The position numbers were made by a program, and so were the translations under genes. From positions 1,601 through 65,600 of the forward strand of contig CAYWPA010000001.1 in the NCBI GenBank assembly GCA_964459835.1: DNA of 64,000 nt. Reading direction: 5' to 3'. Positions within the stretch are counted from its first letter, which is position 1. Each line of letters begins with the position of its first letter. This DNA comes from an uncultured Methanosarcinales archaeon (GTDB lineage Archaea > Nanobdellota > Nanobdellia > Woesearchaeales > UBA12501). The notes beneath the pieces are model-generated. The model was not told the origin of the DNA, ran no database searches, and saw only the letters and a list, made by a program, of their open reading frames with translations. Positions 18,909 to 60,270 of this stretch are shown here, in pieces.

Positions 18909-19364
18909 TTATTTGCTCAGCACTTTGTCAATTGAAAGGTATCTGCTTCCTTCCAATGCCAAGTGTATAGATGCTCCAAGCAAGCCTATGTCTTTTATTA
19001 AGCCGGCTGCGTTGAACATCCCTGGAATTGTTCCTGTTGCATCAAGCACTATTCCTGACACGATGAAGATCAGCAATAATACTGCTGTTCCCAATGCAGC
19101 AAACCTTGTTATCAATCCTATTAACAAAAGCACTCCCAAGATAAGCTCTGCAAGACCAAGCAAAAATACTATAGTAGCTGCCGGCATGAAAGGTATAACC
19201 TTGTCAATTGGCGGCGCTGCTCCAAGAAACAGCTTTCCTATGGCTGCATATATAAAAACAGCTGCAATACCTAAGCGCAGAATAAGGTTGGCAATGTTCA
19301 TCTTTTTTTCCTGTTCCATTTTTAAGCCTCCGAACCTCTTTTTAAGAGAATAAGGAATAAGCAT
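18909..19364 (-). CDS. DoxX family membrane protein
   Basis: LILRLGIAAVFIYAAIGKLF DoxX-like N-terminal helix and 4 TM; immediately upstream of sdhA on the same strand; start may be at an internal Met. Confidence 0.55.
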   Translation of the reverse strand: MLIPYSLKKRFGGLKMEQEKKMNIANLILRLGIAAVFIYAAIGKLFLGAAPPIDKVIPFMPAATIVFLLGLAELILGVLLLIGLITRFAALGTAVLLLIFIVSGIVLDATGTIPGMFNAAGLIKDIGLLGASIHLALEGSRYLSIDKVLSK

Positions 19365-27728: not shown

Positions 27729-27756
27729 GGTTAAAAAAATTAAAATTTATTGCAGC

Positions 27757-28437
27757 TTACTGCAGCTCAGCGTCAATTATCTGCTTGAATGCAGAGAACG
27801 GCTGCGCTCCTACAATCTTCTTTCCGTTTACAAAGAAAGAAGGAGTTCCTGAAACTCCTGCAGCCTGCCCATCAGTCAAGTCTTTCTGCACTTCTGACGC
27901 ATACTTTCCTGAGTCTAAGCAGCTGTTGAATTTTGCTGTATCAAGGCCAAGCTCATCTGCGTACTTTTTCAGATCGATTACGCCAATGGCTGCCTGGTTG
28001 TCAAAAATCTTGTTATGCATCTCCCAGAACTTTCCTTGGTCATCTGCGCATTCAGCTGCCTCTGCCGCTTTCTGCGCATATGGATGTATGCTTGTTAAAG
28101 GAAAGTCCCTGTAAACTAATTTTGCTTTTCCTGTTTTAATGTATTCTTTTTCCAATTGTGGAAGCGTATCAGAATAGAACCTTGCACAGAAAGGACACTG
28201 GAAATCTGAAAACTCTATTATCTCTACAGGCGCGTTCTTGTTTCCCTTAACAGGATCATCATCTGCGCTAACTTCTACTGTTGGCGCTGCTGAAGGCTGT
28301 GTAGGAGAAGGGCTTGGTGCTGCTCCTGTTTCTCCCCTGAAGAATAAAGCCCATATCAAAACTATTGCAAGAATTACTGTAGCTATTTTCCAAAAATCCT
28401 CTTTTTTCAATGAAAACAAAACATCGCTTTTTGCCAT
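27757..28437 (-). CDS. membrane-anchored DsbA-like thiol:disulfide oxidoreductase
   Basis: IEFSDFQCPFCARFY thioredoxin-fold CxxC; N-terminal TM plus Pro/Ser-rich linker. Confidence 0.8.
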   Translation of the reverse strand: MAKSDVLFSLKKEDFWKIATVILAIVLIWALFFRGETGAAPSPSPTQPSAAPTVEVSADDDPVKGNKNAPVEIIEFSDFQCPFCARFYSDTLPQLEKEYIKTGKAKLVYRDFPLTSIHPYAQKAAEAAECADDQGKFWEMHNKIFDNQAAIGVIDLKKYADELGLDTAKFNSCLDSGKYASEVQKDLTDGQAAGVSGTPSFFVNGKKIVGAQPFSAFKQIIDAELQ

Positions 28438-28497
28438 CTATACACCCTCCATAAGGAATGATAAGCGGAAATACCGGTTGTTTATAAAAGTATTGTT

Positions 28498-28689
28498 TTA
28501 AGCCTTATGGCCGACAGGGCACGGCCTGTCTCCGTAGTCGCAGAAAACGCAGCAGCCTTGCTTTGCAGATATTGTTTTTCCACAGCCTTCACATTTGTAA
28601 AAAGTAATGCATTTATCACTAGGAATCTCCATTTTCTGTTTGTGCCTGCATTTAGGGCATGTTAGAGTTCCTGTTGCAGATAGTTTCAT
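28498..28689 (-). CDS. small Cys-rich (multi-CxxC) metal-binding protein
   Basis: CPKC...CEGCG...GCCVFCDYG...CP; 63 aa. Confidence 0.45.
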   Translation of the reverse strand: MKLSATGTLTCPKCRHKQKMEIPSDKCITFYKCEGCGKTISAKQGCCVFCDYGDRPCPVGHKA

Positions 28690-28775
28690 GAGTTTTTTGA
28701 CCGTATATCGTTTATTTAGTAAAATTTATATAAAGGTTATGATATAAAAATATGAACTTTGGTTGAGGTGGAAAA

Positions 28776-29168
28776 ATGAAAAAAATTTTGCTTCTTATCG
28801 CAGTGCTTCTATTGATGACAGGTTGTGCTAAAAGCTATGACTATGGAAAGCCCGCAGAGCCGCAGAAAACATATGTTGTTGAAGAAGAGGCGCAAGCTGA
28901 TGCAGAACAATCAGAGCCTGAAACATCAACAGTTAGTGTAACGATACAGAACTTTGCCTTCAGCCCTGCAACAATAACTGTGAAGAAAGGCACAGCTGTT
29001 ACTTGGACAAATATGGATTCAGCTCCGCATACAGCAACAGGAGATGGCTTTGACACAGGAGTTTTAAAGAAAGGCGAGAGTGGCAGCATTACTTTCAATG
29101 AAGCGGGAACATTTGACTATACCTGCACAATTCATCCAAGCATAAAGGGGAAGGTAATAGTGCAATGA
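28776..29168 (+). CDS. cupredoxin-fold lipoprotein
   Basis: Signal with LLLMTGC lipobox-like Cys; C-terminal YTCTIHPSIKGKVIV cupredoxin copper-site-like motif; GGTGG SD-like sequence upstream. Confidence 0.65.
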   Translation: MKKILLLIAVLLLMTGCAKSYDYGKPAEPQKTYVVEEEAQADAEQSEPETSTVSVTIQNFAFSPATITVKKGTAVTWTNMDSAPHTATGDGFDTGVLKKGESGSITFNEAGTFDYTCTIHPSIKGKVIVQ

Positions 29169-29539
29169 ACAAAAAACTTGCAAATGTTTTTGTTTTTTCA
29201 ATTTTGTTTGCTTTAGCTGTTAATGCAGTAGATATAATATACCATCTTTCCACAGGTGTGCTTGCTCCGCTTTACTATATCATAAGAAAATTCCTTGCGA
29301 TGTTTGTTGCTGCTTTTGCAGTGACATGGCTATATGGCAAAAACATTAAATCAGGCGTTGCTGTTTCAGTCCTTGGTCCAGTATTGTTTTTTATTTACTA
29401 CCGCTTTTTTTATCTGATTAAAGCAGGTGATTTCTTTGCCTTTGGACCTGAAGTGGGAGACAGCGTATCAATGCTATTTGCCCACATGATAATGGCTTTT
29501 GCTGTCTACTGGATGTTTTTGAAGGTTGTTAAAGAATAA
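29165..29539 (+). CDS. membrane protein, unknown function
   Basis: ATGA overlap with the cupredoxin gene; 4 TM. Confidence 0.45.
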   Translation: MNKKLANVFVFSILFALAVNAVDIIYHLSTGVLAPLYYIIRKFLAMFVAAFAVTWLYGKNIKSGVAVSVLGPVLFFIYYRFFYLIKAGDFFAFGPEVGDSVSMLFAHMIMAFAVYWMFLKVVKE

Positions 29540-30187
29540 CTATCCGGTTGCATTAGAAACATTGCTTTGATTGATTGTAGCGTTCATCTCAATATAAAAC
29601 TCTTTAAGATCATCAGGAGACTTATATTCAAGGAATGTTTCATACTCTCCCACTCTGATTTTAGTAAACTCTCCTCTCCTCCTATGGCCTGGAACGTGTG
29701 AATAAATGTTATATTCCCCTTCTTTTGCGTTAAAAACATAGTCTGTTTTACCGTTTGCAGAGACATTAAGCCTTTCAGTTACCCTGTCAAAGCTTCTCAT
29801 AGGGCCTTCAACTACAACCTCATTAGCTTCGCTTACATTATTTTCAATGATTAGCTTAACAGGCCCTGGAAGAATGTTTATCTCTGCAGGAGAAAACTTA
29901 TCAACATTTATTACAATTTTAATAAACTGCTCTATTTCCTCATCGCTTATCCTTTCAAGAACTTCTGACTCGTTTATTTCTGTCTGGTTTGTCTCATTTG
30001 ATTCTTCAACTTCTGTTTCGTTTACTTCTTCTGCTGTTTCATTAATACCATCTTGGGCTGTTTCATTCTCAATCTCCCCTATCTCTGTTTCAAGATCAAG
30101 AATATCCTGCTCTAAATCACTGTTGGATTTGCAGCCTAGAGTAATAAAAACAATAAATACAACAATAATCAAAACCAGCTTTTTCAT
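29540..30187 (-). CDS. acidic lipoprotein with degenerate cupredoxin-like domain
   Basis: Signal ending ITLGC; NET/NQT/NES sequon-rich acidic repeat; C-terminal YSHVPGH resembles a cupredoxin CxxPGH site with Cys replaced by Ser. Confidence 0.45.
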   Translation of the reverse strand: MKKLVLIIVVFIVFITLGCKSNSDLEQDILDLETEIGEIENETAQDGINETAEEVNETEVEESNETNQTEINESEVLERISDEEIEQFIKIVINVDKFSPAEINILPGPVKLIIENNVSEANEVVVEGPMRSFDRVTERLNVSANGKTDYVFNAKEGEYNIYSHVPGHRRRGEFTKIRVGEYETFLEYKSPDDLKEFYIEMNATINQSNVSNATG

Positions 30188-34081: not shown

Positions 34082-34906
34082 TTAAAGCCTGTGTACAACT
34101 GATAGTATAAAAATCCTTCCCCACGTAAAAGCTGGAAGAACTGTTATTGCGCCTATAAGAATTATTGAGGTTGGATCTGATAAAGCTGCCAATAAGTAAT
34201 TAATCAAGAAAAATACTATTATGACAACAGCAAAAGCAGGTATTGTGAATTTGGCTTTTTTTATGCCAATAATAAATGCTTTTTTTATTGTTTCCCATGT
34301 TTTTTGCTTTTCAATTAGTGAGTAGGAGATATTTGCAAAATAAACAATAAGCAGCAGAAATATTGAAAGTACTATGCTTCTTTTGTCAACAATCTGGTCA
34401 GCCCTTACCTGCGCAAGTGTTGTTACAAAATCAAAAACAAAGCTTGCAATAAAGTAAATGACAAACAAGATAAGCCAGAATAGGTTAACTTTTGCAAAAT
34501 TGATTACAAAGTCTGTAAAGTCATGCTTTTTTCCAGCCATCCTGTAGCAGAAACACCAGCTGATTCCCATGAAAAAGCAGTAAATAATGTAAACTGCTGC
34601 AAGCGCAATAAGCAAAAGCAATATGAATGATTTTGTATAGCTTGCTGCTCCTGCGCTTTCTATCACTCCCCACAGTGAAGGCGTTTTAGCAAGTGCATCG
34701 ATATTTCCTGACGCCTGCGTCACAAGGGATGCTGACTTGTAGAAATACTCAATAATCTTTGTAAAAATAGGGCTTGTTATAAAGCCATAGGCAAAAATAA
34801 ACAGCAAGTCAGTAAGCATAGGAAGGAATATGTAAAGGCCGTTTTCTTTTATGATCTTAAAAGAACGGAAAAATTCCTCTTTTACCAACGATATTACATC
34901 CTTCAT
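34082..34906 (-). CDS. polytopic membrane protein, unknown function
   Basis: 274 aa, multiple TM. Confidence 0.4.
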   Translation of the reverse strand: MKDVISLVKEEFFRSFKIIKENGLYIFLPMLTDLLFIFAYGFITSPIFTKIIEYFYKSASLVTQASGNIDALAKTPSLWGVIESAGAASYTKSFILLLLIALAAVYIIYCFFMGISWCFCYRMAGKKHDFTDFVINFAKVNLFWLILFVIYFIASFVFDFVTTLAQVRADQIVDKRSIVLSIFLLLIVYFANISYSLIEKQKTWETIKKAFIIGIKKAKFTIPAFAVVIIVFFLINYLLAALSDPTSIILIGAITVLPAFTWGRIFILSVVHRL

Positions 34907-35268: not shown

Positions 35269-35439
35269 CCACTTTTCTAGCTGTTCTTTTGCTTTCTTTT
35301 TAGTCTTGAAAAACTTTGTTTCTGAAACTGACAAATAAGGGATCCTTCTTGTTACCTTAAATCTTTTTTCTGCTTGGCTTTTAAGCTCAATTAAAGAAAC
35401 TTCCCATTTCTTTGCTGGATGCTTTTTTGCCTTTTTCAT
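35260..35439 (-). CDS. small basic protein (59 aa)
   Basis: Not in the ORF track; MKKAKKHPAKKWEVSLIELKSQAEKRFKVTRR...; its ATG overlaps the TGA of the upstream DsbA-like gene (ATGA coupling). Confidence 0.4.
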   Translation of the reverse strand: MKKAKKHPAKKWEVSLIELKSQAEKRFKVTRRIPYLSVSETKFFKTKKKAKEQLEKWLK

Positions 35440-36110
35440 TTTAACTCGTTATCTATAACCTCTTTTAATTTTGCAAAGCTCTGCGCTCCGACAAGCATCT
35501 GCCCGTTGATAAACAAAGTAGGCGTTCCCTGCACTCCTCTTGAAGAGCCTTCTGCAAAGTCTGCCTGCACTATTGAAAATTTCTGGTTTGTGTCCATACA
35601 TTCGTTAAATTGGTCCATGTTTAGATTTAGCTTTGCTGCATATGCTTCCAATGCATCCCTTGAAACCCTGTCTTGATTCTGGAATATTAAATCATGGTAT
35701 TCCCAGAACTTTCCCTGATCCTTAGCGCATTCACTTGCCTCTGCTGCCTTGTATGCGTTCGGGTGTATCTGTGAAATAGGAAAGTGCCTGTATACAATTG
35801 CAACTTTGTCTCCATAAACAGACTTCACTTGCTTTAAAATCGGGAGCTGCTGTTTGCAGAAAGGGCATTCAAAGTCAGAGAATTCCTCTATAACAACATC
35901 TGCATCTGAGTTTTCTGCTAAATTTGCTGTTAAAGCCTCTCCTGTTATTCCTGAAGTTGCATAGTTTCTTAACTCTTCTGAAGACCCTAAGCTTTGTGTA
36001 AAAGCCAGGTCAATATCAGGAGAAGGAAAAAAATAATTTATATTCATAGCAAAAAGAACCAATCCTAAAACAAGCAATATTCCTAAGCCAAAAATTACTT
36101 TGTTTTTCAT
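35436..36110 (-). CDS. membrane-anchored DsbA-like thiol:disulfide oxidoreductase
   Basis: IEEFSDFECPFCKQQLP. Confidence 0.8.
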   Translation of the reverse strand: MKNKVIFGLGILLVLGLVLFAMNINYFFPSPDIDLAFTQSLGSSEELRNYATSGITGEALTANLAENSDADVVIEEFSDFECPFCKQQLPILKQVKSVYGDKVAIVYRHFPISQIHPNAYKAAEASECAKDQGKFWEYHDLIFQNQDRVSRDALEAYAAKLNLNMDQFNECMDTNQKFSIVQADFAEGSSRGVQGTPTLFINGQMLVGAQSFAKLKEVIDNELK

Positions 36111-36111: not shown

Positions 36112-36498
36112 TTATGGAAGAGGGCATCCTGTCAGCGCTGATAAGCTTTCCAGAGGCATTACTCCTGCTTCTAATAGCTGCCCTTTTATGCTCCATGTTG
36201 GATAAGCCTTGATCCCAACCTCTTTGCATTCAGGATTTACATCGCAGTCCTTGAAGTCAATGTACCTGAAAGAATCCCCAAACATTTTTTTCTGGTTCTG
36301 GCAGTGTGGGCACCAGTTAGTGCCGTACATCGCTACATCATTCTCTGTCAGGCAGACTGCAAAGCTGTCATATTTTGCTGAGTCTGCTTTCTTTAAATAG
36401 AAAAATAAAGCAATAACAACGATAGCCAAAACAATTCCTGCCCTGAAGTAAAGCTTTTTCTGTTTACTGTCCATTTTATTTTGAAAGTTCTGCGTCAA
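36112..36498 (-). CDS. membrane-anchored thioredoxin-like protein
   Basis: N-terminal TM; MYGTNWCPHCQNQKK CxxC. Confidence 0.7.
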   Translation of the reverse strand: MTQNFQNKMDSKQKKLYFRAGIVLAIVVIALFFYLKKADSAKYDSFAVCLTENDVAMYGTNWCPHCQNQKKMFGDSFRYIDFKDCDVNPECKEVGIKAYPTWSIKGQLLEAGVMPLESLSALTGCPLP

Positions 36499-37480
36499 TT
36501 ATCTCCTTGAAAACCTCAAAAGGCTGAGCTCCTGAAACAGGAATTCCATTGATAAAGAAAGCCGGTGTTCCTGAAACGCCTACGCTTATTCCGTCCTGCA
36601 TGTCCTTCTCAACTTCTGACTGGTATTTTCCTGAATCCAGGCATTTGTTGAATTTAGCTGTATCCAACCCAAGGTCAGCTGCCCATTGCTTCAAGTCTGC
36701 TGCAGTGAATTGAACAGTGCCCTGGCCTTGCTTCTCCTGCTCTTCAAATACCTTATCATGATATTCCCAGTACTTGTTTTGTTCTTCTGCACACTCAGCT
36801 GCTTCTGCTGCCTTCTGTGCAGTTGGATGTATTTGTGCTAGAGGAAAGTCTCTATAAACAAACTTAACCTTTCCTGTGTCAATATAATTTTTTTCTAGTT
36901 TAGGTAACGTTTGTCTCCAGAATGCTCTGCAGAATGGGCACTGGAAATCTGAAAACTCGATTATTTCAACTGGTGCATCTTTGCTTCCTTTTACTGCATC
37001 GTCATCTGCTTTTGGAGGATTTAGGTATTTGCCAGCGCCTATTGCCGCTGGGTTTACAATAAATTTGTTGCCTTTAACAATAAATGCTGCCTGAAGCTGA
37101 GGATTTGCCTGAAAGTTTGCGGTTTTTGTTATTTTGTCATCAAATACATATGCTGGCAGTGCTATTATATCCAAATCTTCTGCCATCTTTTTTCCTTCGG
37201 GTGTAGTATAGTCAATTTCCTTTATTTCTAAACTAGGGAATAATTGTCCCTGTAGAACAGATAGTGCCTGTGATACATCACAGCTGCTGCAGCCAGGGTC
37301 ATTTATTATTGTTAAAGTTACCTTTGGGTCACTTGAAGTGTCAATTGCTCCTGGAACTGTTGGAACGGCTGGAGCCTTCTCTTTTACAAACACCAAATAT
37401 AGAACGATGATTGCCAGTACGACAACAGCAACCTTCCATGCTGTGTCTTTTTTAATCCTTATCTCTGAACCCTTTGCCAT
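36476..37480 (-). CDS. DsbA-like thiol:disulfide oxidoreductase with extra N-terminal domain
   Basis: IIEFSDFQCPFCRAFW; 334 aa; N-terminal TM plus about 130-aa additional domain with a CSSC pair. Confidence 0.75.
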   Translation of the reverse strand: MAKGSEIRIKKDTAWKVAVVVLAIIVLYLVFVKEKAPAVPTVPGAIDTSSDPKVTLTIINDPGCSSCDVSQALSVLQGQLFPSLEIKEIDYTTPEGKKMAEDLDIIALPAYVFDDKITKTANFQANPQLQAAFIVKGNKFIVNPAAIGAGKYLNPPKADDDAVKGSKDAPVEIIEFSDFQCPFCRAFWRQTLPKLEKNYIDTGKVKFVYRDFPLAQIHPTAQKAAEAAECAEEQNKYWEYHDKVFEEQEKQGQGTVQFTAADLKQWAADLGLDTAKFNKCLDSGKYQSEVEKDMQDGISVGVSGTPAFFINGIPVSGAQPFEVFKEIIDAELSK

Positions 37481-38659: not shown

Positions 38660-40849
38660 TTAGAATTTCTTTGCCTTCAGAAGAAGGGAGTTTCCTACAA
38701 CACTTACGCTGCTAAATACCATGGCTGCAGCTGCAATCATAGGGCTTAAAAGCAGCCCTGTAAATGGGTAAAGAACCCCTGCTGCGATAGGAATGCCTGC
38801 TGTATTGTAGAAAAATGACCAGAAAAGATTCTGCCTTATTGTGCTGAAGGTCTTTTTTGAAAGCTTAAGCGACTCAACAACTTTTAACGGATGGCCCCTT
38901 ACAAGCACTATGTTGCCTGCTTCAATGGCTATATCGGTTCCTGTGCCTATTGCAATGCCTAGGTCAGCCTGTACTAATGCAGGCGCATCATTAATGCCAT
39001 CTCCCACAAAAGCAACTTTTAATTTATCCCTCTGAAGCATTTTTACCTTGTCCGCCTTGTCCTGAGGAAGCACCTCTGCAAACACTTTTTCTATGCCAGC
39101 TTGCTTGGCAATTGCATCTGCTGTTCTTTTGTTATCCCCTGTAATCATGATAGTTTCAATCCCCATTGCCCTTAGCTTATTGACTGCTTCGAGCGAATCT
39201 TCTTTTAAAGTATCTGCAATGGCGATAATCCCCAATGCTTCTTTTTCATCTGCGACTACAATAACAGTCTTTGCCTGCTGCTCAAGCTCTTCAATCTTGC
39301 CCTGACATGTTTTTGTGGAAATATTATGCCCTTTCATTAAAACATTGTTACCGACAAATATTTTTTTGTTTCCAATAACTCCTGTAACGCCTTTTCCGGC
39401 AAAATTTTCAAATCTATGAACAATTTTTAATGCAATCTTTTTATCCTTTGCAGCGTTTACAACTGCCTGCGCCAATGGATGCTCTGATAATGCTTCTATG
39501 CTGGCTCCCAATGCCAACACACTATCTTCTGAAATATTTTTGCATGCAGCAATATTGGTTACTCTTGGCTTTCCCTCTGTTAATGTCCCTGTTTTATCAA
39601 ATATAACAACATCGATCTTTTTTCCCCTTTCCAGCGCCTCGCCGTTTTTAATCAAGATTCCTCTTTTTGCTCCAATGCCTGTTCCAACCATTATTGCTGT
39701 TGGTGTTGCAAGCCCAAGAGAGCAAGGGCAGGCAATGACAAGCACTGCAACTGCAGGAATCAAGCTTGCTGCAATATTTCCTGTAAAGAAATACCATACT
39801 GCAAATGTAATTATAGAGATAATAATAACAATAGGCACAAATATCCCTGAAACATTGTCTGCAAGCTTTTGTATCGGAGCTGTCTTTGTCTGCGCCTCTG
39901 TGACCATTTTTACGATCTGCGCAAGCACAGTGTCTTCTCCGACCTTTGTTGCCTTTATGTACAAAGCTCCATTGATATTTATAGTGGCTCCAAAAACATC
40001 ATCATCTTTCTGCTTTCCAACTGGCAGGCTTTCTCCTGTAAGCATGGATTCATCAACACTTGACATTCCCTTTGCAACCTTTCCATCAACTGGAATTTTT
40101 TCGCCGGGCTTTACAAGAAGTATGTCGCCAGCCTTAACCTGCTCAATGGGAATTTCCATTTCTTTGTTATTTTTTATTACCCTTGCTGTTTTGGCTCCAA
40201 GCTGAAGCAGCTTTTCAATGGCCTCGCTTGCCTGCCCCCTGCATTTTGCTTCAAAATACCTTCCAAGCAGAATAAATGCAGCAATAACAGCGCCTGTTTC
40301 AAAATAAAGGTCTGGCTTTCCTGCTGCCATGGCCCATGCACTGTAGAATAATGCAGCAAGAACACCTATTGATACTAAAGTGTCCATATTTGCAGACTTC
40401 ATTCTTGCCTGATGGATCATGCCTAAGTGGAACTCCCTTCCAAGAACAAGAATTACAAATGCGCTTAATAGTGCCTGGATCCAGAGGCTTGCATTAATGC
40501 CTAGGATATCCAGCGGCAGCTTGATACTGAACATAGCGATTATTAGCGGAGGGGCTGCCAGCAGCAATGCCAAAACAGCTCTCCTTTTTGTTGTAGCAAG
40601 CTCTTTTTGAGCTTCCTGCTTATGATTATGGGTGAATTGTTCAGTAAGCACCTTATACCCATTCTTTATGATTGCATCATGAAGGTCTTTCTCAGAAACA
40701 AGGCTTTCATCATACTCCACAGTTGCGCTGTGTGTTGCAAAATTAACCATGGCTTCAGAGACACCTTTTATTTTTTTCAGGCTTCTTTCATTTCGCACTG
40801 CACAAGAAGCGCAGTGCATTCCTGCAATATTAAAAGTTGTTTTTTTCAT
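38660..40849 (-). CDS. copA: copper-translocating P1B-type ATPase
   Basis: N-terminal [15 protein letters not shown]; CPC in TM6; DKTGTLT; GDGINDAP. Confidence 0.9.
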
Positions 40850-40856: not shown

Positions 40857-41066
40857 TTATTTTTTACTTACTACCTTATATTCGCCAGCTGATTCAATTT
40901 CTTTTTTTAATCTCCCTAAATCAGCATTGTCATGCTCTATGGTTACTTTACCTGTCTTGAAATCAACAACACAATTCCTGACACCGGCAACATCCCTGCA
41001 TACATCTTCAATTACTGCTTTGCAGGATTCGCAGTGCATGCCTTTTATATACATTGTTGTTTTCAT
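40857..41066 (-). CDS. copZ: copper chaperone (HMA domain)
   Basis: [16 protein letters not shown]; 69 aa. Confidence 0.85.
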
Positions 41067-41107: not shown

Positions 41108-42541
41108 TCAGACAACATTGAACACGCCTGGGCCTGCCATCCCCATTGAGCAGCTGAATCTTATCGCTCCTGTTTTTTCTGGGGTAAAGGTAATGGTCTT
41201 TACCTTATCCCTGGGAAGAACTTCTGTGATGCCAAGCTGCGGAACAGAGATCACCTGTGCACAGCCCTGCGCTGCCCTTCCGTCAATCCTCCATTCTACA
41301 GGAACGCCTTCAGCAACAGTAAACTGCGATGGGTAATAATCACGCCCCATGACTTTCATTTCTATTATTTGTTTGCCGTCAGCTTCTCCAGCTGTTTTTA
41401 TGTAATCTGTGCCTGCGCCCTGGATTGTATTCTGGACTGTATTTTTTGAAAAGAAACCGGATTCAAGCGGATTTCCTGCCAAGGCAAAGCCATTGCTTAT
41501 GCTGAATATGCCTAGTAAAATAACTGCAACAGCAGATGTTTTTACAATATACCTGTGTGCTGCTCCTTTTGCAAAGCTTGAAACAGCGCCTAAAGAAACA
41601 AGCGCTGGAAGTGTTCCTAAGGAAAAGAAAAGCATTGTCAATGCTCCTGTCATAAAGCTTCCTGTGCTCAGCACATAAAGCTGCAATGCCTGTGTAAAGC
41701 CGCATGGAAGGAAAAATGTAGATGCCCCAAACAAGAAAGGGGCAGCTTTGCGGTTTTTGTCTGAAGAGGTATTGTAAATCTTATGCACTATGAACTTTGG
41801 CATCTTTGGCTGGAAGTATCTTAGCCATGGGAATATATTGAGCATCTGCAGGCCAAGCAGGACCATGACTATGCTTACAGCAACAGTCAGATAGCCTGTT
41901 GTACTTGCTGACAAAGTAAAGGCAGAGCCTAGCAACCCAACAAAACCGCCTAGAATTGTGTATGAAGCGATTCTTCCTATGTTGAAATAAATATGCGGCT
42001 TAAATTTCTGGTGTCCGCTTAGATTATGATGCTGCTGGTTGTACTTTGTTGCAACCGCAAGCAGCAGGCCTCCTGTAACTGCAAGGCATGTGGAGAATGC
42101 AGCAATGATCCCTATAATAAAAACAAGGCCATAGGTCATATTTTCAGAAACGCCTATATTTGGAAGTATATCAAACTGCTTGAAGATAAGGTATAATCCT
42201 AAAACAATAAGGAAAGCTGCTCCTATTTCCACATGGTCTTTTTTAAATTCATAGTGTTTGCTTTTGGCGGCGCTTTTCTTTGAAGGCTCAGCGCTTTCAT
42301 GCCTTGCCCCTTCCTTAAGCGAGGAAACTGTATAGCCATGCCCATGTATAGATTCATTTAATTCGTTTATGCTCGGTTCTCTTGCCTTGTAATACACTAT
42401 CGCCCTGCCGCTTGCATGGCTTACCCTAGCTTTCTTTACTCCCTCAATATTACTGAATTTTCTCTCGATAAGCACTTCGCAGCTCGCGCAGTGCATTCCG
42501 TTAACCCTTAGTTTTAGTTTTTTCAGGTTTTTGTTGCCCAT
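41108..42541 (-). CDS. HMA domain / Cys-containing permease (DsbD_2/MerT-like) / cupredoxin-like domain fusion protein
   Basis: N-terminal VNGMHCASCEVLIE; central 6-8 TM with Cys in helices (AAFSTCLAVTGG, FFLPCGF); C-terminal about 100 aa YYPSQFTV...FSCSMGMAG cupredoxin-like with a Cys/Met site. Confidence 0.55.
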   Translation of the reverse strand: MGNKNLKKLKLRVNGMHCASCEVLIERKFSNIEGVKKARVSHASGRAIVYYKAREPSINELNESIHGHGYTVSSLKEGARHESAEPSKKSAAKSKHYEFKKDHVEIGAAFLIVLGLYLIFKQFDILPNIGVSENMTYGLVFIIGIIAAFSTCLAVTGGLLLAVATKYNQQHHNLSGHQKFKPHIYFNIGRIASYTILGGFVGLLGSAFTLSASTTGYLTVAVSIVMVLLGLQMLNIFPWLRYFQPKMPKFIVHKIYNTSSDKNRKAAPFLFGASTFFLPCGFTQALQLYVLSTGSFMTGALTMLFFSLGTLPALVSLGAVSSFAKGAAHRYIVKTSAVAVILLGIFSISNGFALAGNPLESGFFSKNTVQNTIQGAGTDYIKTAGEADGKQIIEMKVMGRDYYPSQFTVAEGVPVEWRIDGRAAQGCAQVISVPQLGITEVLPRDKVKTITFTPEKTGAIRFSCSMGMAGPGVFNVV

Positions 42542-42599
42542 AGTCAGGATATGTTCTGAAACCCCTTATAAAAATAACGTGAAACTAGTTTCAGGATGA

Positions 42600-43157
42600 T
42601 TAGTTGAGAATAACTATATTAGTCATCCCCCTTCTCTGCCTTTCTATCAGCTTCTTTCCTTCCATCCTGTCAAGAATTCTTGTAAGCTGGACCTTTGTGA
42701 GGCCTGTTTCCTTCATTATATCGCTCTGGTACATAGAGCCGTCCTTCTGCACAAGCAGCTCATAAACCTTTTTTTCCCTTTCATCAAACTTTGAAATCTT
42801 TGAAATGTCGGCTTTTTCAGCCTTGGATATTGATTCTGTTGTTCCTGCTTCTTTCTTTTTCTTTGCACTTATTTCCCTTATTTCTGCTATTTCTTTTTTT
42901 ATAGGCTTAAAAATCATAAATATGCCGCTGCCAAAAATAAGCAAGGCAATCACAAATGCTGCAAGAACATACCACGATGCAATGTTTTCGTGTGCAGGGC
43001 ACTGCTCCATTGTTAGAGTGGGGGATTCTGCCACAACCTTGCATAGAAAAGCCCCTTCCTTGTCAAGATTGAGCTTGACAAAAATAAGAAGGATGATAAG
43101 TATAAAAGAAGATGCAACTAGTATTTTACCAATACTTTTCTGGTCAATGTTAGCCAT
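42600..43157 (-). CDS. membrane-tethered winged-helix transcriptional regulator
   Basis: 2 TM flanking a loop with a Cys pair (CKVV...EQC); charged linker; C-terminal MarR/TrmB-like wHTH (SDIMKETGLTKVQLTRILDRMEGKKLIER). Confidence 0.55.
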   Translation of the reverse strand: MANIDQKSIGKILVASSFILIILLIFVKLNLDKEGAFLCKVVAESPTLTMEQCPAHENIASWYVLAAFVIALLIFGSGIFMIFKPIKKEIAEIREISAKKKKEAGTTESISKAEKADISKISKFDEREKKVYELLVQKDGSMYQSDIMKETGLTKVQLTRILDRMEGKKLIERQRRGMTNIVILN

Positions 43158-43240
43158 ATTTTCCTTGTTTTTTGTTTGTATTTAAATGTTGCTAAAAATT
43201 AAGGCAAATCTTTAAATAAGCCACGACCTTCCTTCAAAAA

Positions 43241-43735
43241 ATGAATAACAAAAAAATAGGGGCAGTTTTTCTTGTAATCAGCATAGTCATTGCAATGATT
43301 ATAATCAAGCTAATGGGTGGTTTAAATACAAAGGCAAGTGAACTTGGCTGTTTTGATAAGCAGGGATGCCTGCAGATTGAATCTTCATTAAGCCTGGCCC
43401 ATATCTCTTTTGGCGTTATAGGATTTATCTTTGCCCTTGGCTTTTATCTTATTTTCTTTGCAAAGGGAGAGGAGGAAATCCTAAGGAGGTTAGAACAAGA
43501 CAAGCAAAAGCTGCTTGAAGATGAAAAATTTAATTTAATATTAAAAGGTCTTGATAATTTTGAAAAAAAAGCAATGAAGGCAATAAAAGAGCAGGATGGA
43601 ATAACTCAAAATACATTGCGAATAAGAACAGACATGTCAAAGGCAAAGCTTAGCTATGTTCTTAAGGATCTTGAAGATAAAGGATTAATAAAGAGAGTTA
43701 AAAAAGGAAAGACGCTTGCAGTGTTCTTAAAATAG
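43241..43735 (+). CDS. membrane-tethered winged-helix transcriptional regulator (paralog)
   Basis: 2 TM flanking a CFDKQGC loop; coiled-coil linker; C-terminal wHTH (ITQNTLRIRTDMSKAKLSYVLKDLEDKGLIKR); divergent to 42600..43157. Confidence 0.55.
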   Translation: MNNKKIGAVFLVISIVIAMIIIKLMGGLNTKASELGCFDKQGCLQIESSLSLAHISFGVIGFIFALGFYLIFFAKGEEEILRRLEQDKQKLLEDEKFNLILKGLDNFEKKAMKAIKEQDGITQNTLRIRTDMSKAKLSYVLKDLEDKGLIKRVKKGKTLAVFLK

Positions 43736-43868
43736 GCTGAGATTGCTTTATGAACGTTCTTAAAGCAGAATTCGGCATATATAGCCATTTTTACCAGTAC
43801 TGTTCATAGGATTGATTATTTATAATACTTCTATCTAAAATTCTTTAAAATCACATTGGAGGGATAAT

Positions 43869-44597
43869 ATGAAAAAAGAAAGTGAAAAAGAGGAAGCAAT
43901 CACATTCAAAAAATCAACATTATGGAAAGCTGCCGTAGTTATTTTGGCAATAATAGTAGTATGGCAGTTATTTTTTAAGACAGGAACAGGAGTAGGGGCA
44001 GCGGTGCCATCACCGGCTGCTCCGCCTCCCCCAACAGCTGCTGTAAGCGCTGCAGAACTGGAGGATGACGATGCCTTTTTGGGCAATGAAAATGCGCCAC
44101 TAACAATAGTGGAGTTTTCAGACTTCCAGTGCCCATTCTGCAGGAAGTTCTGGAAAGATACTTTGCCTAGCATAAAGAAAGATTATATCGACACAGGAAA
44201 GGTTAAGTTTGTCTACAGGGATTTCCCATTGACAAGCATACATCCGGGAGCTCAGCCGGCTGCAGAGGCAAGTGAATGTGCCAGAGAGCAGGATAGGTTC
44301 TGGCAGTACCATGACAAGATCTTTGAAGAGCAGGATAAAAGAGGACAGGGCACAGTTCAATTCGGAGTTGCTGACTTAAAACAATGGGCAGCTGACCTTG
44401 GACTGGATACAGGAAAGTTCAACAAATGCCTGGATTCAGGAAAATATTCTGCAGAAGTAAATAAAGACCTGATAGATGCACAAAGAGCAGGGGGACAGGG
44501 AACTCCTCATTTTGTCATTGGAAACACGCCGGTAAGCGGCGCAATGCCTTATTCATCTTTCAAGCCAGTGATTGACGCAGAGCTGGCAAGAAGCTAA
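43869..44597 (+). CDS. membrane-anchored DsbA-like thiol:disulfide oxidoreductase
   Basis: IVEFSDFQCPFCRKFW; GGAGG SD upstream. Confidence 0.8.
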   Translation: MKKESEKEEAITFKKSTLWKAAVVILAIIVVWQLFFKTGTGVGAAVPSPAAPPPPTAAVSAAELEDDDAFLGNENAPLTIVEFSDFQCPFCRKFWKDTLPSIKKDYIDTGKVKFVYRDFPLTSIHPGAQPAAEASECAREQDRFWQYHDKIFEEQDKRGQGTVQFGVADLKQWAADLGLDTGKFNKCLDSGKYSAEVNKDLIDAQRAGGQGTPHFVIGNTPVSGAMPYSSFKPVIDAELARS

Positions 44598-44624
44598 ATT
44601 TTTGTTTTTTATTATTTTTTAAAT

Positions 44625-45173
44625 ATGGAAGTAAAGAAAAGGATTAAAGATATACTTATTGCACTAAAAAACGTATATCAAAAACCGCTTTACATAGCTT
44701 TAGCTAGCTTTACAACTTTGCTTATATTAACTTTTAACATTAGCATAATCAATTACAGAGTTTATCTTAATTTCCCAAGCTTTGAAATTATCAGTAAAAT
44801 ATTCATTGGAACATTTTTGGCATTACCCGTTCATTCAATAATGCTTTTATTAATAGCATCGATTTTAAGCGGCATATTCGTTTCATTGCTGGTGTACCAA
44901 CTTAAAACTATAAAATCCATGAACAAGTCTTATGCAACAGGCGCAGGCGGCATTGTTTTGGGAACAATTGCTCCTGCCTGCGCTTCATGCGGCATTGGCT
45001 TGCTTGCTTTGCTTGGCTATACAGGATTAATTGCTGTTTTGCCTTTCAAAGGCCTGGAAGTAGGCTATCTTGGCATAGTTTTATTAATAATAGCAATATC
45101 TTCGATCTCAGCAAAGATATCTAATAAAACATGCAATATAAGCAATGCGAAACTCATTAAATATAGAAAATAA
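44625..45173 (+). CDS. CxxC-containing small permease-like membrane protein (MerT/DsbD_2-like?)
   Basis: ATGAGGIVLGTIAPACASCGIGLLALLG intramembrane CxxC; paralog of 45712..46188. Confidence 0.45.
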   Translation: MEVKKRIKDILIALKNVYQKPLYIALASFTTLLILTFNISIINYRVYLNFPSFEIISKIFIGTFLALPVHSIMLLLIASILSGIFVSLLVYQLKTIKSMNKSYATGAGGIVLGTIAPACASCGIGLLALLGYTGLIAVLPFKGLEVGYLGIVLLIIAISSISAKISNKTCNISNAKLIKYRK

Positions 45174-45213
45174 GATAAATAAGTTTAGTTTGCATAAAAT
45201 GATAACGTAAAAA

Positions 45214-45579
45214 ATGAAAAACACAATACAGACAACTTTGATGATAGACATTATATTTATCATTTTAGCTATTGCAGGATGTACAAGTCAGACAATAAGC
45301 AGCAAAGGAACAGGGGAATTAAAAGAATTTAATGCAGTTATAAGTGAATATAGTTACAATCCTTCTTCTATAACTGTTAATTTTGGCGATACAGTGAAGG
45401 TAAATATAAAGAACACTGATGGGGTAACTCACGGCATATCCTTGCCGGTTTTTGGCGTACAGGAGTTTGTAAAGCCAGGAGAAACAAAAACAATACAGTT
45501 TGTGGCAAACCAGCGTGGTCAGCCAGAAACATTTTGCAGTACAGACCATGGAGAGAAATTATTTATTGAGGTGATATAA
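45214..45579 (+). CDS. cupredoxin-fold lipoprotein
   Basis: Signal with ILAIAGC lipobox; HGISLP and FCSTDHGEKLFIEV cupredoxin-like ligands. Confidence 0.55.
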   Translation: MKNTIQTTLMIDIIFIILAIAGCTSQTISSKGTGELKEFNAVISEYSYNPSSITVNFGDTVKVNIKNTDGVTHGISLPVFGVQEFVKPGETKTIQFVANQRGQPETFCSTDHGEKLFIEVI

Positions 45580-45711
45580 TGGGGCATCATCCGGCAGCAG
45601 GAATGCAAGTTGCAAGCTCATCAGGAATTCCATCTGAAGTATGGTTTATAATTCTCGTTGGTATTGCAGTCTTAATTTATCTTATTTATAAGTTTACAAA
45701 GAAAAACTAAG

Positions 45712-46188
45712 ATGAGAAAAAAACAAAAGAAAAATCCGGCATCATGGCCTTATGTAGCTATTGGCTCAGTTGCCGCAATAATAGCTTTCTTTTTATTTGG
45801 AATACCCACTGCAGTAATACCAAACTCTTATTTTTTCAGAATGTCGCCTGTAACAATTTTTGACTATATTTTTCTTCCGATAAATTCTGTTTTGTTTGGG
45901 GCTTTTATTGCTCTTTTATTTTACCAAGGAAATTACAAAAGGCTGATAAAACTAAAAAATACAAAAACAGAAAGCGCAGCAACTGGAGCTGCATTTGTCA
46001 ATGTTTTAGCATTGGGCTGCCCAATATGCAATGTAGTGCTTGTCTCATTATTCAGCACAACAGCTTTGATGACTTATCTAGAGCCTGCAAGGCCTGCACT
46101 TTCAGTATTAACTGCAGGAATTCTCGGAACAGCAATCTATTTCAAGGCAAAGAGCATAAAGGAATGCAAAGTTTGCAAAAGAAAATAA
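45712..46188 (+). CDS. CxxC-containing small permease-like membrane protein (paralog)
   Basis: ATGAAFVNVLALGCPICNVVLVSLF; C-terminal KECKVCKRK. Confidence 0.45.
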   Translation: MRKKQKKNPASWPYVAIGSVAAIIAFFLFGIPTAVIPNSYFFRMSPVTIFDYIFLPINSVLFGAFIALLFYQGNYKRLIKLKNTKTESAATGAAFVNVLALGCPICNVVLVSLFSTTALMTYLEPARPALSVLTAGILGTAIYFKAKSIKECKVCKRK

Positions 46189-46196: not shown

Positions 46197-46376
46197 TTAT
46201 GATTTATTTTTTAATTCATCTTCAGCAACTTCAGGAAAGAATAATCCTGTAAATCCACATTTATTGCATTTATATTGATTGAAAAAAGAACCTCTGCCAT
46301 AAGATTGCAAGGATAAGTCCGGAATTACATCAGTGCTCTTGCACTTAGGACAAAATCTAATTAATTTTTTTGACAT
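46197..46376 (-). CDS. small zinc-ribbon protein (59 aa)
   Basis: Not in the ORF track; MSKKLIRFCPKCKST...YKCNKCGFTG. Confidence 0.4.
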   Translation of the reverse strand: MSKKLIRFCPKCKSTDVIPDLSLQSYGRGSFFNQYKCNKCGFTGLFFPEVAEDELKNKS

Positions 46377-46481: not shown

Positions 46482-46727
46482 ATGAAAAACAATCATATTA
46501 AACTGGCTTTATTTGCTTCAGTATTGTTGTTATTCTCTGTTTTTGTTTCAGCGCAGGGAGGATGTCCTACGATATATGGTGGATACAGCATGATGGGTTA
46601 TGGGGCTGGATGGTGGGTATTTTACCACTTAATAGGTCTTGTATTGCTGATTGCATTAATATGGGTTATCGTATGGGTGATTTTAAAATATTTTAACCCA
46701 CAGAAAAAATCAAAAAGGAAACAATAA
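46482..46727 (+). CDS. small secreted/membrane protein
   Basis: Signal peptide; GGCPTIYGGYSMMGYGAGWW; C-terminal TM; GGTGA SD upstream. Confidence 0.4.
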   Translation: MKNNHIKLALFASVLLLFSVFVSAQGGCPTIYGGYSMMGYGAGWWVFYHLIGLVLLIALIWVIVWVILKYFNPQKKSKRKQ

Positions 46728-46744: not shown

Positions 46745-47038
46745 ATGGAAGGACAGGCAAAACTAAATACATGCGCATTGGCAGGTGCATTTACAATTAT
46801 CTCAGGCGTTGATTCGTTTCTTCATGCATTGCTTCAGTCAATGGGCAAGGAGTTTTTGTTCTACAATGCAGGAACATGGAATATTGTGTCGTCTGTATAT
46901 CCCTGGATGTCAGCAACAACTAGCGGAGCATTTGTTGGGCTTATAGCTGGTGCAATTTTAGGCTTTGTAGTTGGCTTTATAACGGCATGGCTGTACAACT
47001 TCGTGCTTGCAAGGCACAGCTGCAAGATGTGCAAATAA
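46745..47038 (+). CDS. small membrane protein with C-terminal CxxC
   Basis: GGAGGTGA SD upstream; ends HSCKMCK. Confidence 0.4.
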   Translation: MEGQAKLNTCALAGAFTIISGVDSFLHALLQSMGKEFLFYNAGTWNIVSSVYPWMSATTSGAFVGLIAGAILGFVVGFITAWLYNFVLARHSCKMCK

Positions 47039-58515: not shown

Positions 58516-60270
58516 ATGGTAAGAATAGCTGTTATTGAGGAAGAGAGATGCCACCCTACAGAATGCGGCAACTACCTTTGCATTAGAGTGTGCCCTGTCA
58601 ACAAGATAGGGGACGAGTGCATTTACAAGGGAGAAAAAAAGAAAGCGGCTATCAATACTGAGCTCTGCACTGGCTGTGGAATCTGCCCAAAAAGGTGCCC
58701 TTTTGATGCGATACATATAATCAACCTTCCTGAAGAGCTTGACAAGAATCCTATCCATAGGTATGGGGAAAACGGATTTCACCTTTACAATCTTCCTATC
58801 CCTATTTTCGGGAAAGTGGTGGGATTGTTGGGAAGAAACGGAATCGGAAAATCAACAGCAGTAAAAATTCTTGCAGGCTTGCTGAAGCCAAACCTAGGCG
58901 GAGAAAAAGATGCGACACATGAGGAATTGATTGAATACTTTAAGGGAAGCGAAGCGCATCAGTTTATGGAGAAAGTCAGGGATGGAAAAATAAAAGTTTC
59001 ATACAAGCCGCAGCAGGTTGAATTAATCCCTAGAACAGCTTCAGGAACTGTAAAGGAATTGCTTAAGAAGGCAGATGAAAAGGGAGAATGGAAAAATGTT
59101 GCTGAAGAGTTGGATCTAAATGAAGTTTTGGATCATGATGTAAAGAATATTTCGGGTGGAGAGCTGCAAAGGCTTGCAATAGCAGCTGCTGTTTTGAAAA
59201 AGGCAAATGTTTATTTTTTTGATGAGCCTGCCTCTTATCTTGATATCAAGCAAAGAATTAATGTTTCAAAATTCATAAGCAATCTGGCAAATGAGGATAC
59301 TGCAGTTATAGTTGTAGAGCATGACCTTATTATTCTTGATTATATGACTGAATTGATACATGTAATGTACGGAGAAACAGGGGCTTATGGGGTAGTGAGC
59401 CAGACCAAAGCAACAAAAACAGGAATTAATGCCTATCTAGAGGGATTTCTGAAGGAAGAGAATATCAGGTTCAGAGAAAGCAGGATAAAGTTCGCTACAA
59501 GGCCGCCTATGGAAGCCAAGGGCAAGCATATTTTAACATCCTGGAATGGTATAAAGAAGCAGCTCGGAAGCTTCAGGCTCGAGGCATGGCATGGGGATGT
59601 AAAAAGAAATGAAGTTATAGGTATTTTAGGGGAGAATGGAATTGGAAAGACAAGCTTTGTAAAAATGCTTGCAGGAGTTATTGAAGCTGATTCGGGAGAA
59701 ACAGGAGCAAAGCTGAAAGTTTCATATAAACCGCAGTATATTGATATTTCCGGAGATGACTTAGTCATGTCTATTTTGCAGAATGCAATAAAAAAATACG
59801 AAGCCCAGATCATAAAGCCACTGGGTCTGAAAGAATTGCTTATGAGAAAAGTTGGGGACCTTTCAGGCGGAGAGCTGCAAAGGGTTGCCATTGCTTACGC
59901 TCTTTCACAGGAAGCTGACATTTATTTGCTGGATGAGCCTTCTGCTTATCTTGATACAGAGCAAAGGCTGAATGTTGCCAAAGTTATCAGGGATTTGATG
60001 GAGCTGAAAGGAGCAACATGTATGGTTGTTGACCATGACTTGCTATTTATTGATTATTTGTCTGATGAGATAGTTGTTTTTGGAGGAAAGCCTGCTGTTC
60101 ACGGAGTTGTCAACGGCCCGTTTATCATGGAAGAGGGAATGAATATGTTTCTTAGAGACATTAGCATAAGCATGCGAAGGGATGCAGAAAGCAACAGGCC
60201 AAGGATAAACAAGCTTGGCTCACAGATGGACAGGAAGCAGAAGTCCGAGGGGAAACTGTACTATGCCTGA
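58516..60270 (+). CDS. abcE1: ABCE1 (RNase L inhibitor / ribosome recycling ATPase)
   Basis: N-terminal 4Fe-4S domain (CIRVCPVN...CTGCGICPKRCP) plus two ABC cassettes (GRNGIGKST, GENGIGKTS, LSGGELQR x2). Confidence 0.95.
   Translation: MVRIAVIEEERCHPTECGNYLCIRVCPVNKIGDECIYKGEKKKAAINTELCTGCGICPKRCPFDAIHIINLPEELDKNPIHRYGENGFHLYNLPIPIFGKVVGLLGRNGIGKSTAVKILAGLLKPNLGGEKDATHEELIEYFKGSEAHQFMEKVRDGKIKVSYKPQQVELIPRTASGTVKELLKKADEKGEWKNVAEELDLNEVLDHDVKNISGGELQRLAIAAAVLKKANVYFFDEPASYLDIKQRINVSKFISNLANEDTAVIVVEHDLIILDYMTELIHVMYGETGAYGVVSQTKATKTGINAYLEGFLKEENIRFRESRIKFATRPPMEAKGKHILTSWNGIKKQLGSFRLEAWHGDVKRNEVIGILGENGIGKTSFVKMLAGVIEADSGETGAKLKVSYKPQYIDISGDDLVMSILQNAIKKYEAQIIKPLGLKELLMRKVGDLSGGELQRVAIAYALSQEADIYLLDEPSAYLDTEQRLNVAKVIRDLMELKGATCMVVDHDLLFIDYLSDEIVVFGGKPAVHGVVNGPFIMEEGMNMFLRDISISMRRDAESNRPRINKLGSQMDRKQKSEGKLYYA

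Follow-up and report, generated by a model that had tools for sequence, protein, structure and literature searches.

DsbA-type thiol oxidoreductases are, to our knowledge, recycled by membrane partners of the DsbB, VKOR and DsbD/CcdA types only. DsbB and VKOR are the oxidizing partners and reach DsbA through a second extracytoplasmic cysteine (Cys) pair; CcdA and DsbD are the reducing ones. Here we analyze a 64,000-nucleotide stretch of contig CAYWPA010000001.1 (hereinafter designated the window, with positions counted from its first letter), in which two divergent operons form a copper- and thiol-handling island of a DPANN archaeon. The island encodes two unrelated types of Cys-lined membrane protein, namely protein A, in which an HMA domain, a DsbD_2 core and a cupredoxin-like domain are fused, and the paralogues B and D, which belong to an unannotated family. 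B is coupled, genetically and physically, to DsbA-like proteins, and we regard this family, tightly coupled to DsbA as it is, as a more interesting element than the fused protein A.

Protein B (44625..45173, plus strand) is a 182-residue protein with four transmembrane (TM) helices and no Pfam or NCBIfam match. Its gene starts 27 nucleotides (nt) 3′ of that of DsbA1 (43869..44597, plus strand), a TM-anchored DsbA-like protein with a CPFC motif and a GTP cis-Pro motif (Thioredoxin_4, 2e-35; DSBA, 1.4e-17). Our co-occurrence counts rest on about 15 distinct loci (designated L below; individual homologues are designated P), 11 of which are informative for B, and a DsbA-like gene is adjacent to or fused with a B-type gene at 7 of the 11. 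In the window and at L002, L005/6, L010/11, L012/13 and L014/15 the two genes directly adjoin each other in the same orientation, with gaps of 3–28 nt or overlaps of 4–20 nt, 4-nt overlaps being frequent; the seventh locus is that of the fusion protein P0039. Three independent fusions (P0039, which is identical in three separate assemblies, P0051 and P0144) join B, through a fifth TM helix, to a DsbA/Thioredoxin_4 domain, and the additional helix places the C terminus of B and its C170 on the cytoplasmic side and the DsbA domain outside.

The Cys pair of B (C119-x-x-C122, in APACASCG) lies within TM3, accompanied by an LPFxGxE motif in an outer loop and by C170 beyond TM4 on the cytoplasmic side. 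D (45712..46188, plus strand; 158 residues) is a divergent paralogue of B (BLASTP, 1e-6; 29% identity over 111 residues), as the first-pass annotation of this stretch had proposed, and the tetrapeptide ATGA precedes the TM CxxC in both proteins. In D, C103-x-x-C106 (GCPIC) lies within the membrane and C152-x-x-C155 on the cytoplasmic side at the C terminus, a LEPARP loop resembles that of MerT, and similarity to the B family extends to dozens of members (1e-11 to 1e-7). A word-index search with B returned only 10 relatives, none with a Pfam domain, and an exhaustive profile search raised this to at least 2,189 representative clusters (E ≤ 1e-3), of which 1,167 reach E ≤ 1e-10. All named members are called 'hypothetical protein' and come from Pacearchaeota or Nanoarchaeota, and neither the A nor the B/D family is described in the literature that we surveyed on DPANN DsbA, DsbD_2/PF13386, YcnL and TauE in connection with copper. 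In an alignment of 77 diverse B/D members C119 and C122 are invariant, and G83, G131, L139, P140, G143, E145, L154 and C170 are conserved in at least 90%. C170 stands at a fixed spacing, about 8 residues after TM4, and the corresponding position holds a CxxC in 13 of the 77 members, including D.

The AlphaFold2 (AF2) model of B is a confident four-TM structure (predicted local distance difference test score, pLDDT, 87; predicted template modeling score, pTM, 0.79), for which the PDB offers no related fold at E ≤ 1e-3; nor does the B sequence match any PDB entry at E ≤ 10. When the 77 members were scanned against Pfam and NCBIfam, no family was matched by more than three of them; DsbB (PF02600) and VKOR (PF07884) were absent among the 25 families listed of the 63 found for these members, and neither model was matched by B or D at E ≤ 1. 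Membership of B in the DsbB, VKOR or CcdA families was accordingly ruled out, given both the scan and the lack of a fold or sequence match in the PDB. We also considered the C-terminal Cys as a CaaX prenylation signal, because ICMT-like genes recur near B/D-family genes, and rejected the idea, as this Cys lies anywhere from 1 to 20 residues from the C terminus and its spacing is fixed to TM4. The genes in question encode ICMT/PEMT-family membrane methyltransferases and lie close to members of the B/D family, no more than a few genes away, at L014 (4461-4895), L012 (8728-9312) and L017 (1811-2446), and none is found in the window.

DsbA1 is one of four DsbA paralogues within 64 kilobases (kb). 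DsbA2 (36476..37480, minus strand; 334 residues; Thioredoxin_4, 8.9e-40) carries an N-terminal extension with a second CxxC, DsbA3 (35436..36110, minus strand; 224 residues; Thioredoxin_4, 2.7e-28) has a CPFC motif, and the fourth paralogue (27757-28437) belongs to a separate cluster at 26970-30187. Between the genes of DsbA2 and DsbA3 lies that of a TM-anchored thioredoxin-like protein with a WCPHC motif (36112..36498, minus strand), whose only PDB matches are 3KP8 and 3KP9 (5e-17) and which is homologous to the thioredoxin (Trx) domain fused to cyanobacterial VKOR. Just 3′ of DsbA3, in the same minus-strand row, 34082-34906 encodes a 274-residue protein with six predicted TM helices, 3 Cys and no Pfam family. 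A counterpart of the orphan VKOR-type thioredoxin is found at L003 (2683-3228). A survey of CxxC proteins together with Pfam scans detected neither DsbB nor VKOR in the window, and likewise no VKOR membrane domain near 36112. The only multi-TM proteins with a CxxC in the window are A, B, D and the ATPase CopA, which bears out the first-pass annotation on the absence of DsbB and VKOR.

The explanation that we favor overall, at a rough probability of 0.45, is that B recycles DsbA by thiol exchange and that A serves as an HMA/CupA-type relay of Cu(I) or thiols. In it, the tethered DsbA-like enzyme would be recycled through thiol-disulfide exchange between its CPFC and the intramembrane CxxC of B, and we give about even odds to the component claim that B is a dedicated membrane thiol partner of DsbA with a redox role. 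Each direction of this putative redox role, taken singly, is rather unlikely, with the oxidizing one marginally favored over the reducing one. The preference rests on the BdbD/MdbA-like character of the DsbA proteins, on the absence of DsbB and VKOR nearby and on the VKOR-like architecture of the fusions. The closest solved relatives of DsbA1 are Corynebacterium DsbA (4PWP), 7UNN and Bacillus subtilis BdbD (3EU3), all at about 3e-24, and ScsC types are matched at 1e-7 to 1e-8 only, so that DsbA1 appears to be of the oxidase type rather than the ScsC type. A further reason comes from L005, where the gene order is DsbA-B-DsbA′-(HMA-DsbD_2): the second DsbA adjoins a CcdA-like HMA-DsbD_2 protein that may form a reducing branch, and the order suggests, by analogy, two pairs like DsbA/DsbB and DsbC/DsbD. 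A thiol-electron shuttle that reoxidizes DsbA-like proteins had been suggested for A, B, cupredoxin and D together; conserved adjacency, overlap and fusion with DsbA-like genes support such a shuttle, in one direction or the other, for B specifically.

Several observations weigh against this explanation. No DsbA is found near the B-type gene at four loci (L001/L008, L009, L003 and L018). An oxidase of the DsbB/VKOR type would have no need of the conserved Cys that follows TM4 by about 8 residues on the cytoplasmic side, and B lacks a second extracytoplasmic Cys pair, with only C119, C122 and the cytoplasmic C170 being conserved. The CxxC of B lies at about mid-membrane, as estimated from helix positions, which would be hard for a globular DsbA to reach unless a cavity is present. 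D-types pair with a cupredoxin or with CopA, without DsbA, and these partners, together with a sub-threshold similarity to MerT, point to metal hand-over rather than electron transfer. Finally, homology of the A core to CcdA and DsbD favors electron transfer as much as metal transfer.

A bolder version of the recycling explanation holds that the B family is a third class of DsbA-recycling membrane enzyme after DsbB and VKOR, structurally unrelated to both, and the main one in DPANN archaea. We consider this doubtful. Such an enzyme might work independently of quinones, with electrons passing to cupredoxins and a multicopper oxidase or leaving through the cytoplasmic Cys. If true, it would explain extracellular disulfide formation in minimal cells.

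Both divergent operons start with a membrane-bound MarR-like regulator, and these regulators bring in a further explanation, in which B and D are merely co-regulated with their neighbors and act as copper- or redox-responsive sensors, as copper buffers or as accessory subunits of the MarR proteins rather than as partners of DsbA or cupredoxin. The plus-strand operon begins with a protein of two TM helices and a DUF7343/MarR winged helix-turn-helix with a Cys pair in its outer loop (43241..43735, plus strand; assigned by Pfam), orthologues of which adjoin B-family genes at L014/L015 (9e-54). The minus-strand operon, which contains A, begins with a second such regulator (42600..43157, minus strand; two TM helices and DUF7343 by Pfam), whose outer loop holds a Cys pair and a His and whose orthologues adjoin B-family genes at L010, L014 and L018. 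MarR/DUF7343 regulators with Cys-pair loops thus recur beside the B family in the window and at L010, L014 and L018, and the four B loci devoid of DsbA are also consistent with co-regulation. A precedent is Salmonella ScsA, which passages of PMC10907172 describe as a small membrane CX2C protein of unassigned function in a copper-induced operon with DsbA- and DsbD-like genes. The 4-nt overlaps, indicative of translational coupling, and the three independent DsbA fusions argue instead for physical partnership, and the pairing of subtypes (B with DsbA, D with cupredoxin) is kept between distant loci; we therefore consider co-regulation alone improbable. Between the 43241 regulator and DsbA1, at 43744-43767, lies a 24-base-pair near-perfect palindrome (TGCTTTATGAAC/GTTCTTAAAGCA).

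Other genes also recur beside the B/D family, encoding CupA-like small cupredoxins, multicopper oxidase, HMA proteins, CopA, CsoR, ArsR and a Met-rich TM protein. A TM-anchored His-rich family (HxH … HTH … C..C) is found beside B/DsbA pairs at L002 (1074-1661), L003 (4359-4970), L012 (6443-6988) and L014 (6378-7028), and its domain is fused to DsbA at L005, at the C terminus of 6571-7767. A conserved 70-residue protein with two TM helices (…FYNP…) is encoded directly 5′ of the B-family gene at L001 (5774-5986), L009 (7708-7965), L010 (4783-5004) and L020 (2552-2776), the B-DsbA fusion locus being among them. At L018 (3289-3564) a Cys/Met-rich lipoprotein (MWMKMQP…C.GC…H.C) is encoded between a multicopper oxidase and the B gene, and in P0020 this lipoprotein domain (residues about 200-281) is fused, past an extra TM helix, to the C terminus of a B-family protein.

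D keeps different company. Upstream of it the window encodes protein C (45214..45579, plus strand), a 121-residue cupredoxin lipoprotein, as first annotated, with the lipobox LAIAGC and a Cupredoxin_1 (PF13473) match at 5.3e-11 (42.9 bits against a cut-off of 27). Its closest solved relative is nitrosocyanin (1IBY, 7.5e-12), and its predicted mononuclear-type ligands H73, C108 and H112 are conserved in the orthologue at L016. Between C and D lies an unannotated reading frame for a 43-residue single-TM peptide (MGHHPAAG…KFTKKN; 45579..45710, plus strand), recognized from its translation. Its start codon shares sequence with the stop codon of C and its end is 1 nt short of D, so that it is translationally coupled between the two. 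Its MGHH N terminus, of the form X-X-His, resembles an amino-terminal Cu(II)- and Ni(II)-binding (ATCUN)-type site and may bind Cu(II). The same cupredoxin-peptide-D triad occurs at L016, in the order C-type cupredoxin (3e-42), 46-residue peptide (5859-5999; phmmer, 2.6e-19), D-like gene and ArsR, and at L017 a D-like gene lies directly 5′ of a CopA-like ATPase. D-type proteins are thus coupled to a cupredoxin or to CopA. Each subtype of the family appears dedicated to its own extracytoplasmic partner, B to a DsbA-like protein and D to the cupredoxin with the MGHH peptide or to CopA. Beyond D lie genes for a 59-residue zinc-ribbon protein (46197-46376, minus strand), an 81-residue membrane protein (46482-46727) and a 97-residue holin_4-like membrane protein (46745-47038), whose CxxC tail (…HSCKMCK) recalls the C terminus of D.

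The LEPARP loop and the cytoplasmic Cys of D raise the question of a relation to MerT, which we examined with Tn501 MerT (100% identical to the annotated merT) and with four diverse MerT and two MerF sequences as references. MerT models are the best NCBIfam matches for all three D-types tested. D and P0173 match MerTP_fusion best (4.7e-4), and P0176 matches the MerT model PRK13751 (5.4e-5) as well as Pfam MerT (3.4e-3; model positions 3-74). In hhalign the D subfamily aligns to four MerT sequences at E 0.002 (probability 13%), with the Cys pair, an LEPxRP loop and the cytoplasmic Cys in register. The curated thresholds of the MerT models (PF02411, NF010314 and NF033556) were not reached by B or D types: D-types come nearest, with 23.3, 19.8-20.3 and 17.8 bits where 150, 180 and 32.9, respectively, are required. 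Pfam MerT is matched by 2 of the 77 family members at E of about 0.02, and the B-family profile gives E of about 0.1 against MerT in hhalign and at most 5 bits in hmmsearch. The family has a CxxC in place of the vicinal Cys-Cys of MerT and mostly a single Cys on the cytoplasmic side, and no MerR, MerP or MerA gene occurs at the roughly 15 distinct loci. With a marginal signal confined to the D subfamily, the likeness to MerT is better described as resemblance than as membership, a shared layout whose homology is unproven.

A rival explanation is a MerT-style relay of soft metals, either Cu(I) or Hg(II)/Ag(I), which B and D would accept from an extracytoplasmic carrier and move by thiolate ligand exchange to the CxxC and on to the cytoplasmic Cys; the carrier could be the DsbA-like CxxC protein in the role of MerP, the cupredoxin or the Cys/Met-rich lipoprotein. 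Such a relay is possible, if on the unlikely side. It would account for the exact arrangement of the Mer transporters, with the Cys pair inside a TM helix, the hairpin of helices and the cytoplasmic Cys or CxxC just past the second helix, for the in-register alignment of the D subfamily, for the fusion of the lipoprotein domain to B in P0020, and for the copper context of CopA, HMA, multicopper oxidase, CsoR/ArsR, CupA-like proteins and the Met-rich TM protein. Passages of PMC8900818 and PMC10907172 also provide a precedent in reporting that DsbA-like ScsC proteins bind Cu(I). Set against this are the low MerT scores, which are not significant for the B-type profile, the CxxC in place of a vicinal pair and the absence of mer genes. 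Moreover, the DsbA partners retain the hallmarks of redox-active DsbA and are nearest to oxidases, and Cu(I) import would have no obvious benefit in a resistance island. We know of no DsbA-family protein that passes metal to a transporter.

Protein A (41108..42541, minus strand; 477 residues) fuses an HMA domain, a Cys-bearing permease and a cupredoxin-like end, as had been read from its sequence, and all three domains exceed their Pfam gathering thresholds: HMA at residues 11-71 (5.9e-12; motif GMHCASC), DsbD_2 (PF13386) at residues 140-345 (7.6e-38; 130.8 bits against a cut-off of 24.9; model positions 2-198 of 199) and Cupredoxin_1 at residues 382-472 (2.6e-10), with the protein ending in FSCSMGMAG. 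The DsbD_TM model is also matched (35 bits against a cut-off of 27.1). In the AF2 model (pLDDT 83) seven TM helices follow the HMA domain, namely one extra helix and a six-TM DsbD_2/CcdA-like core, and the chain ends in a beta sandwich. Across 65 A homologues the invariant residues comprise the HMA pair C18/C21, the membrane Cys C152 (STC) and C280 (PCGFT), and, in the cupredoxin domain, C427 and C464-x-M466-x-M468. C152 and C280 supply the single conserved Cys in TM1 and in TM4 (Pro-Cys in TM4) by which DsbD_2/CcdA cores are recognized.

Foldseek against the PDB finds the metal-binding domain (MBD) of Streptococcus pneumoniae CopA (4F2F; E 2e-6, TM-score 0.90) as the best match of the A cupredoxin domain, together with the Cu(I) chaperone CupA (4F2E; 3e-6, TM-score 0.88), which confirms the cupredoxin call at the level of fold. 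Both CupA and CopA-MBD are also matched by phmmer (E-values of 1.3e-7 and 7.7e-6 between them), in alignments that bring the Cys and CxMxM ligands into register. No conserved His occurs in this domain among the aligned homologues, and the type-1 His/Cys/His(+Met) set is absent; with C/C/M/M ligands and no His the domain is not a blue-copper electron-transfer site. Residues 385-476 are, as predicted from these ligands, a CupA-type binuclear Cu(I) site (S1/S2) combining a bis-thiolate with a Met-rich part. The positive-inside pattern of the loops suggests that the HMA domain is cytoplasmic and the CupA-type domain extracytoplasmic, a placement that differs from the cytoplasmic location of a CupA-type domain serving a P1B ATPase. 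With its CopZ-like HMA, membrane Cys and CupA domain, A would thus carry soft-metal or thiol sites inside, within and outside the membrane. Cu(I) may be handed between the HMA and CupA-type domains through C152 and C280; alternatively, A may act in the manner of DsbD and keep its own outer Cys pair reduced. These two roles, Cu(I) relay and DsbD-like reductant, appear about equally plausible. The suggestion in the first-pass annotation of a MerP/MerT logic with cupredoxins serving as a copper route therefore fits A; the small permeases of D-type, too, match MerT models in register, below the thresholds.

The architecture of A is common: 2,980 of 8,000 scored candidates match at E ≤ 1e-10, and all three domains are present in 118 of the 120 best matches (P0283 has no cupredoxin hit and P0295 no HMA hit). 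Most homologues have about 580 residues and two tandem cupredoxin domains. The matches come from Woesearchaeota, Nanoarchaeota and Peregrinibacteria and bear automatic names such as 'sulfite exporter TauE/SafE family protein' or '…/plastocyanin domain/copper chaperone CopZ'; in one family member, P0262, a DUF3105 domain is fused as well. The architecture is thus already known, although uncharacterized, and what is new is the CupA-type Cu(I) assignment of its domain. A review considers CupA to be restricted to a few streptococci (PMC7558416). By our assignment, CupA-type Cu(I) domains formerly thought to be streptococcal only would be widespread in DPANN archaea and in the Candidate Phyla Radiation, joined there to CcdA-like cores and with a predicted extracellular position.

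It had been proposed that A on the one hand and B, C and D on the other are the fused and split forms of one HMA/cupredoxin-associated Cys-permease module. Both sets do join a Cys-bearing membrane protein and a Cupredoxin_1 domain within one island, and the cupredoxin domains of C and A are homologous (1e-6). The membrane domains are dissimilar: BLASTP gives E 1.2 for B and 0.13 for D against that of A, and a profile-profile comparison by hhalign of the 77-member B/D and 65-member A alignments pairs one column only. They also differ in TM number, Cys layout and family, A having a single Cys in TM1 and in TM4 of a six-TM DsbD_2 core, B and D one CxxC in TM3 of four TM helices without any Pfam model. 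Comparison to the DsbD_2, MerT and CcdA models accordingly places A in DsbD_2, finds no DsbD_2 in B or D and yields sub-threshold MerT matches for D-types alone. The metal sites diverge as well, CupA-type C427/C464/M466/M468 in A and H73/C108/H112 in C. Across loci, B pairs with DsbA and not with HMA or cupredoxin, and the architecture of A stays intact in thousands of proteins, among which no split form made with the B family was seen. A single module in two forms is refuted at the level of homology and is hardly credible.

Downstream of A on the minus strand lie the genes for a CopZ-like single-domain HMA copper chaperone (40857..41066, minus strand; HMA, 8.3e-14) and a CopA-type P1B ATPase with an N-terminal HMA (38660..40849, minus strand), which has the motifs CPC and DKTGT and strong matches to P-type ATPases at L005 and L017. 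The second DsbA/cupredoxin cluster of the window (26970-30187) encodes, besides the fourth DsbA, a plastocyanin-like cupredoxin (28776-29168), a Cys-free four-TM protein without family (29165-29539), a 215-residue Cupredoxin_1 protein (29540-30187) and a bacterial-type Lgt (PF01790, 2.7e-73), present here in an archaeon. The presence of Lgt fits the lipoboxes found on C and on several proteins at L016 and L018. Three fumarate-reductase/succinate-dehydrogenase-like genes occupy 15151-18886 (minus strand), with succinyl-CoA ligase genes close by; they encode a CCG/HdrB-like subunit (15151-16023), an Fe-S subunit (16020-17168) and a flavoprotein (17165-18886), all on the minus strand, and the flavoprotein gene is followed by one for a four-TM DoxX/MauE/DoxD-like membrane protein (18909-19364, minus strand). 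These genes matter for the question of whether disulfide formation could draw on an electron sink linked to quinones or thiols. The archaeal marker ABCE1/RLI is encoded at 58516-60270, and genes for L21e, Rpb4, the proteasome and RNase P subunits are archaeal neighbors of B-family loci; the relatives of this archaeon are Pacearchaeota and Nanoarchaeota.

Should B prove to recycle DsbA, its family would add a new class to the enzymes of the disulfide pathway, one belonging to host-dependent archaea. If B and D are instead MerT-like Cu(I) relays, Mer transport logic would take in copper as well as carriers that are cupredoxins or have a thioredoxin fold.

Like DsbB/BdbC and VKOR (the bdbDC operon; Synechococcus VKOR-Trx, 3KP9), B is a small four-TM protein with a CxxC, adjacent to or fused with a thioredoxin-fold partner. 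Its fusions share with VKOR-Trx the succession of four TM helices, one linker TM helix and a Trx-fold domain, and its partner is closest to BdbD, as encoded in bdbDC, and to Corynebacterium DsbA. B differs from DsbB and VKOR in having no similarity in sequence or fold, no second outer Cys pair, a mid-membrane CxxC in TM3 and an additional cytoplasmic Cys. With MerT, MerC and MerF and their partner MerP, B and D share the TM Cys pair, the hairpin, the cytoplasmic Cys and a dedicated extracytoplasmic partner that is sometimes fused, as in MerTP. In contrast to MerT, they have CxxC instead of CC, two extra N-terminal TM helices, DsbA or cupredoxin rather than HMA as partner, and a copper context. 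ScsA is comparable to B by description only, as the small membrane CX2C protein portrayed in passages of PMC10907172.

The island as a whole recalls CcdA/DsbD/ScsB with ScsC in combining copper stress, DsbA-like proteins and Cys-bearing membrane proteins, and the core of A is a true DsbD_2 with two TM Cys. A departs from DsbD and ScsB in carrying HMA and CupA-type domains rather than Ig-like and Trx-like ones, and B and D are unrelated to DsbD_2. The C-terminal domain of A is like CupA and CopA-MBD (4F2E, 4F2F; TM-score 0.88-0.90) and keeps the ligands Cys…Cys-x-Met-x-Met; in S. pneumoniae these domains work in the cytoplasm for a P-type ATPase, whereas the domain of A has a predicted extracytoplasmic location, is joined to a DsbD_2 core and is often duplicated. 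C, finally, shares the cupredoxin fold and an aligned Cys ligand with nitrosocyanin (1IBY), and differs in having His73 for the Glu ligand and a C-x3-H loop without the second His, and in being a lipoprotein encoded together with the MGHH peptide and a CxxC membrane protein.

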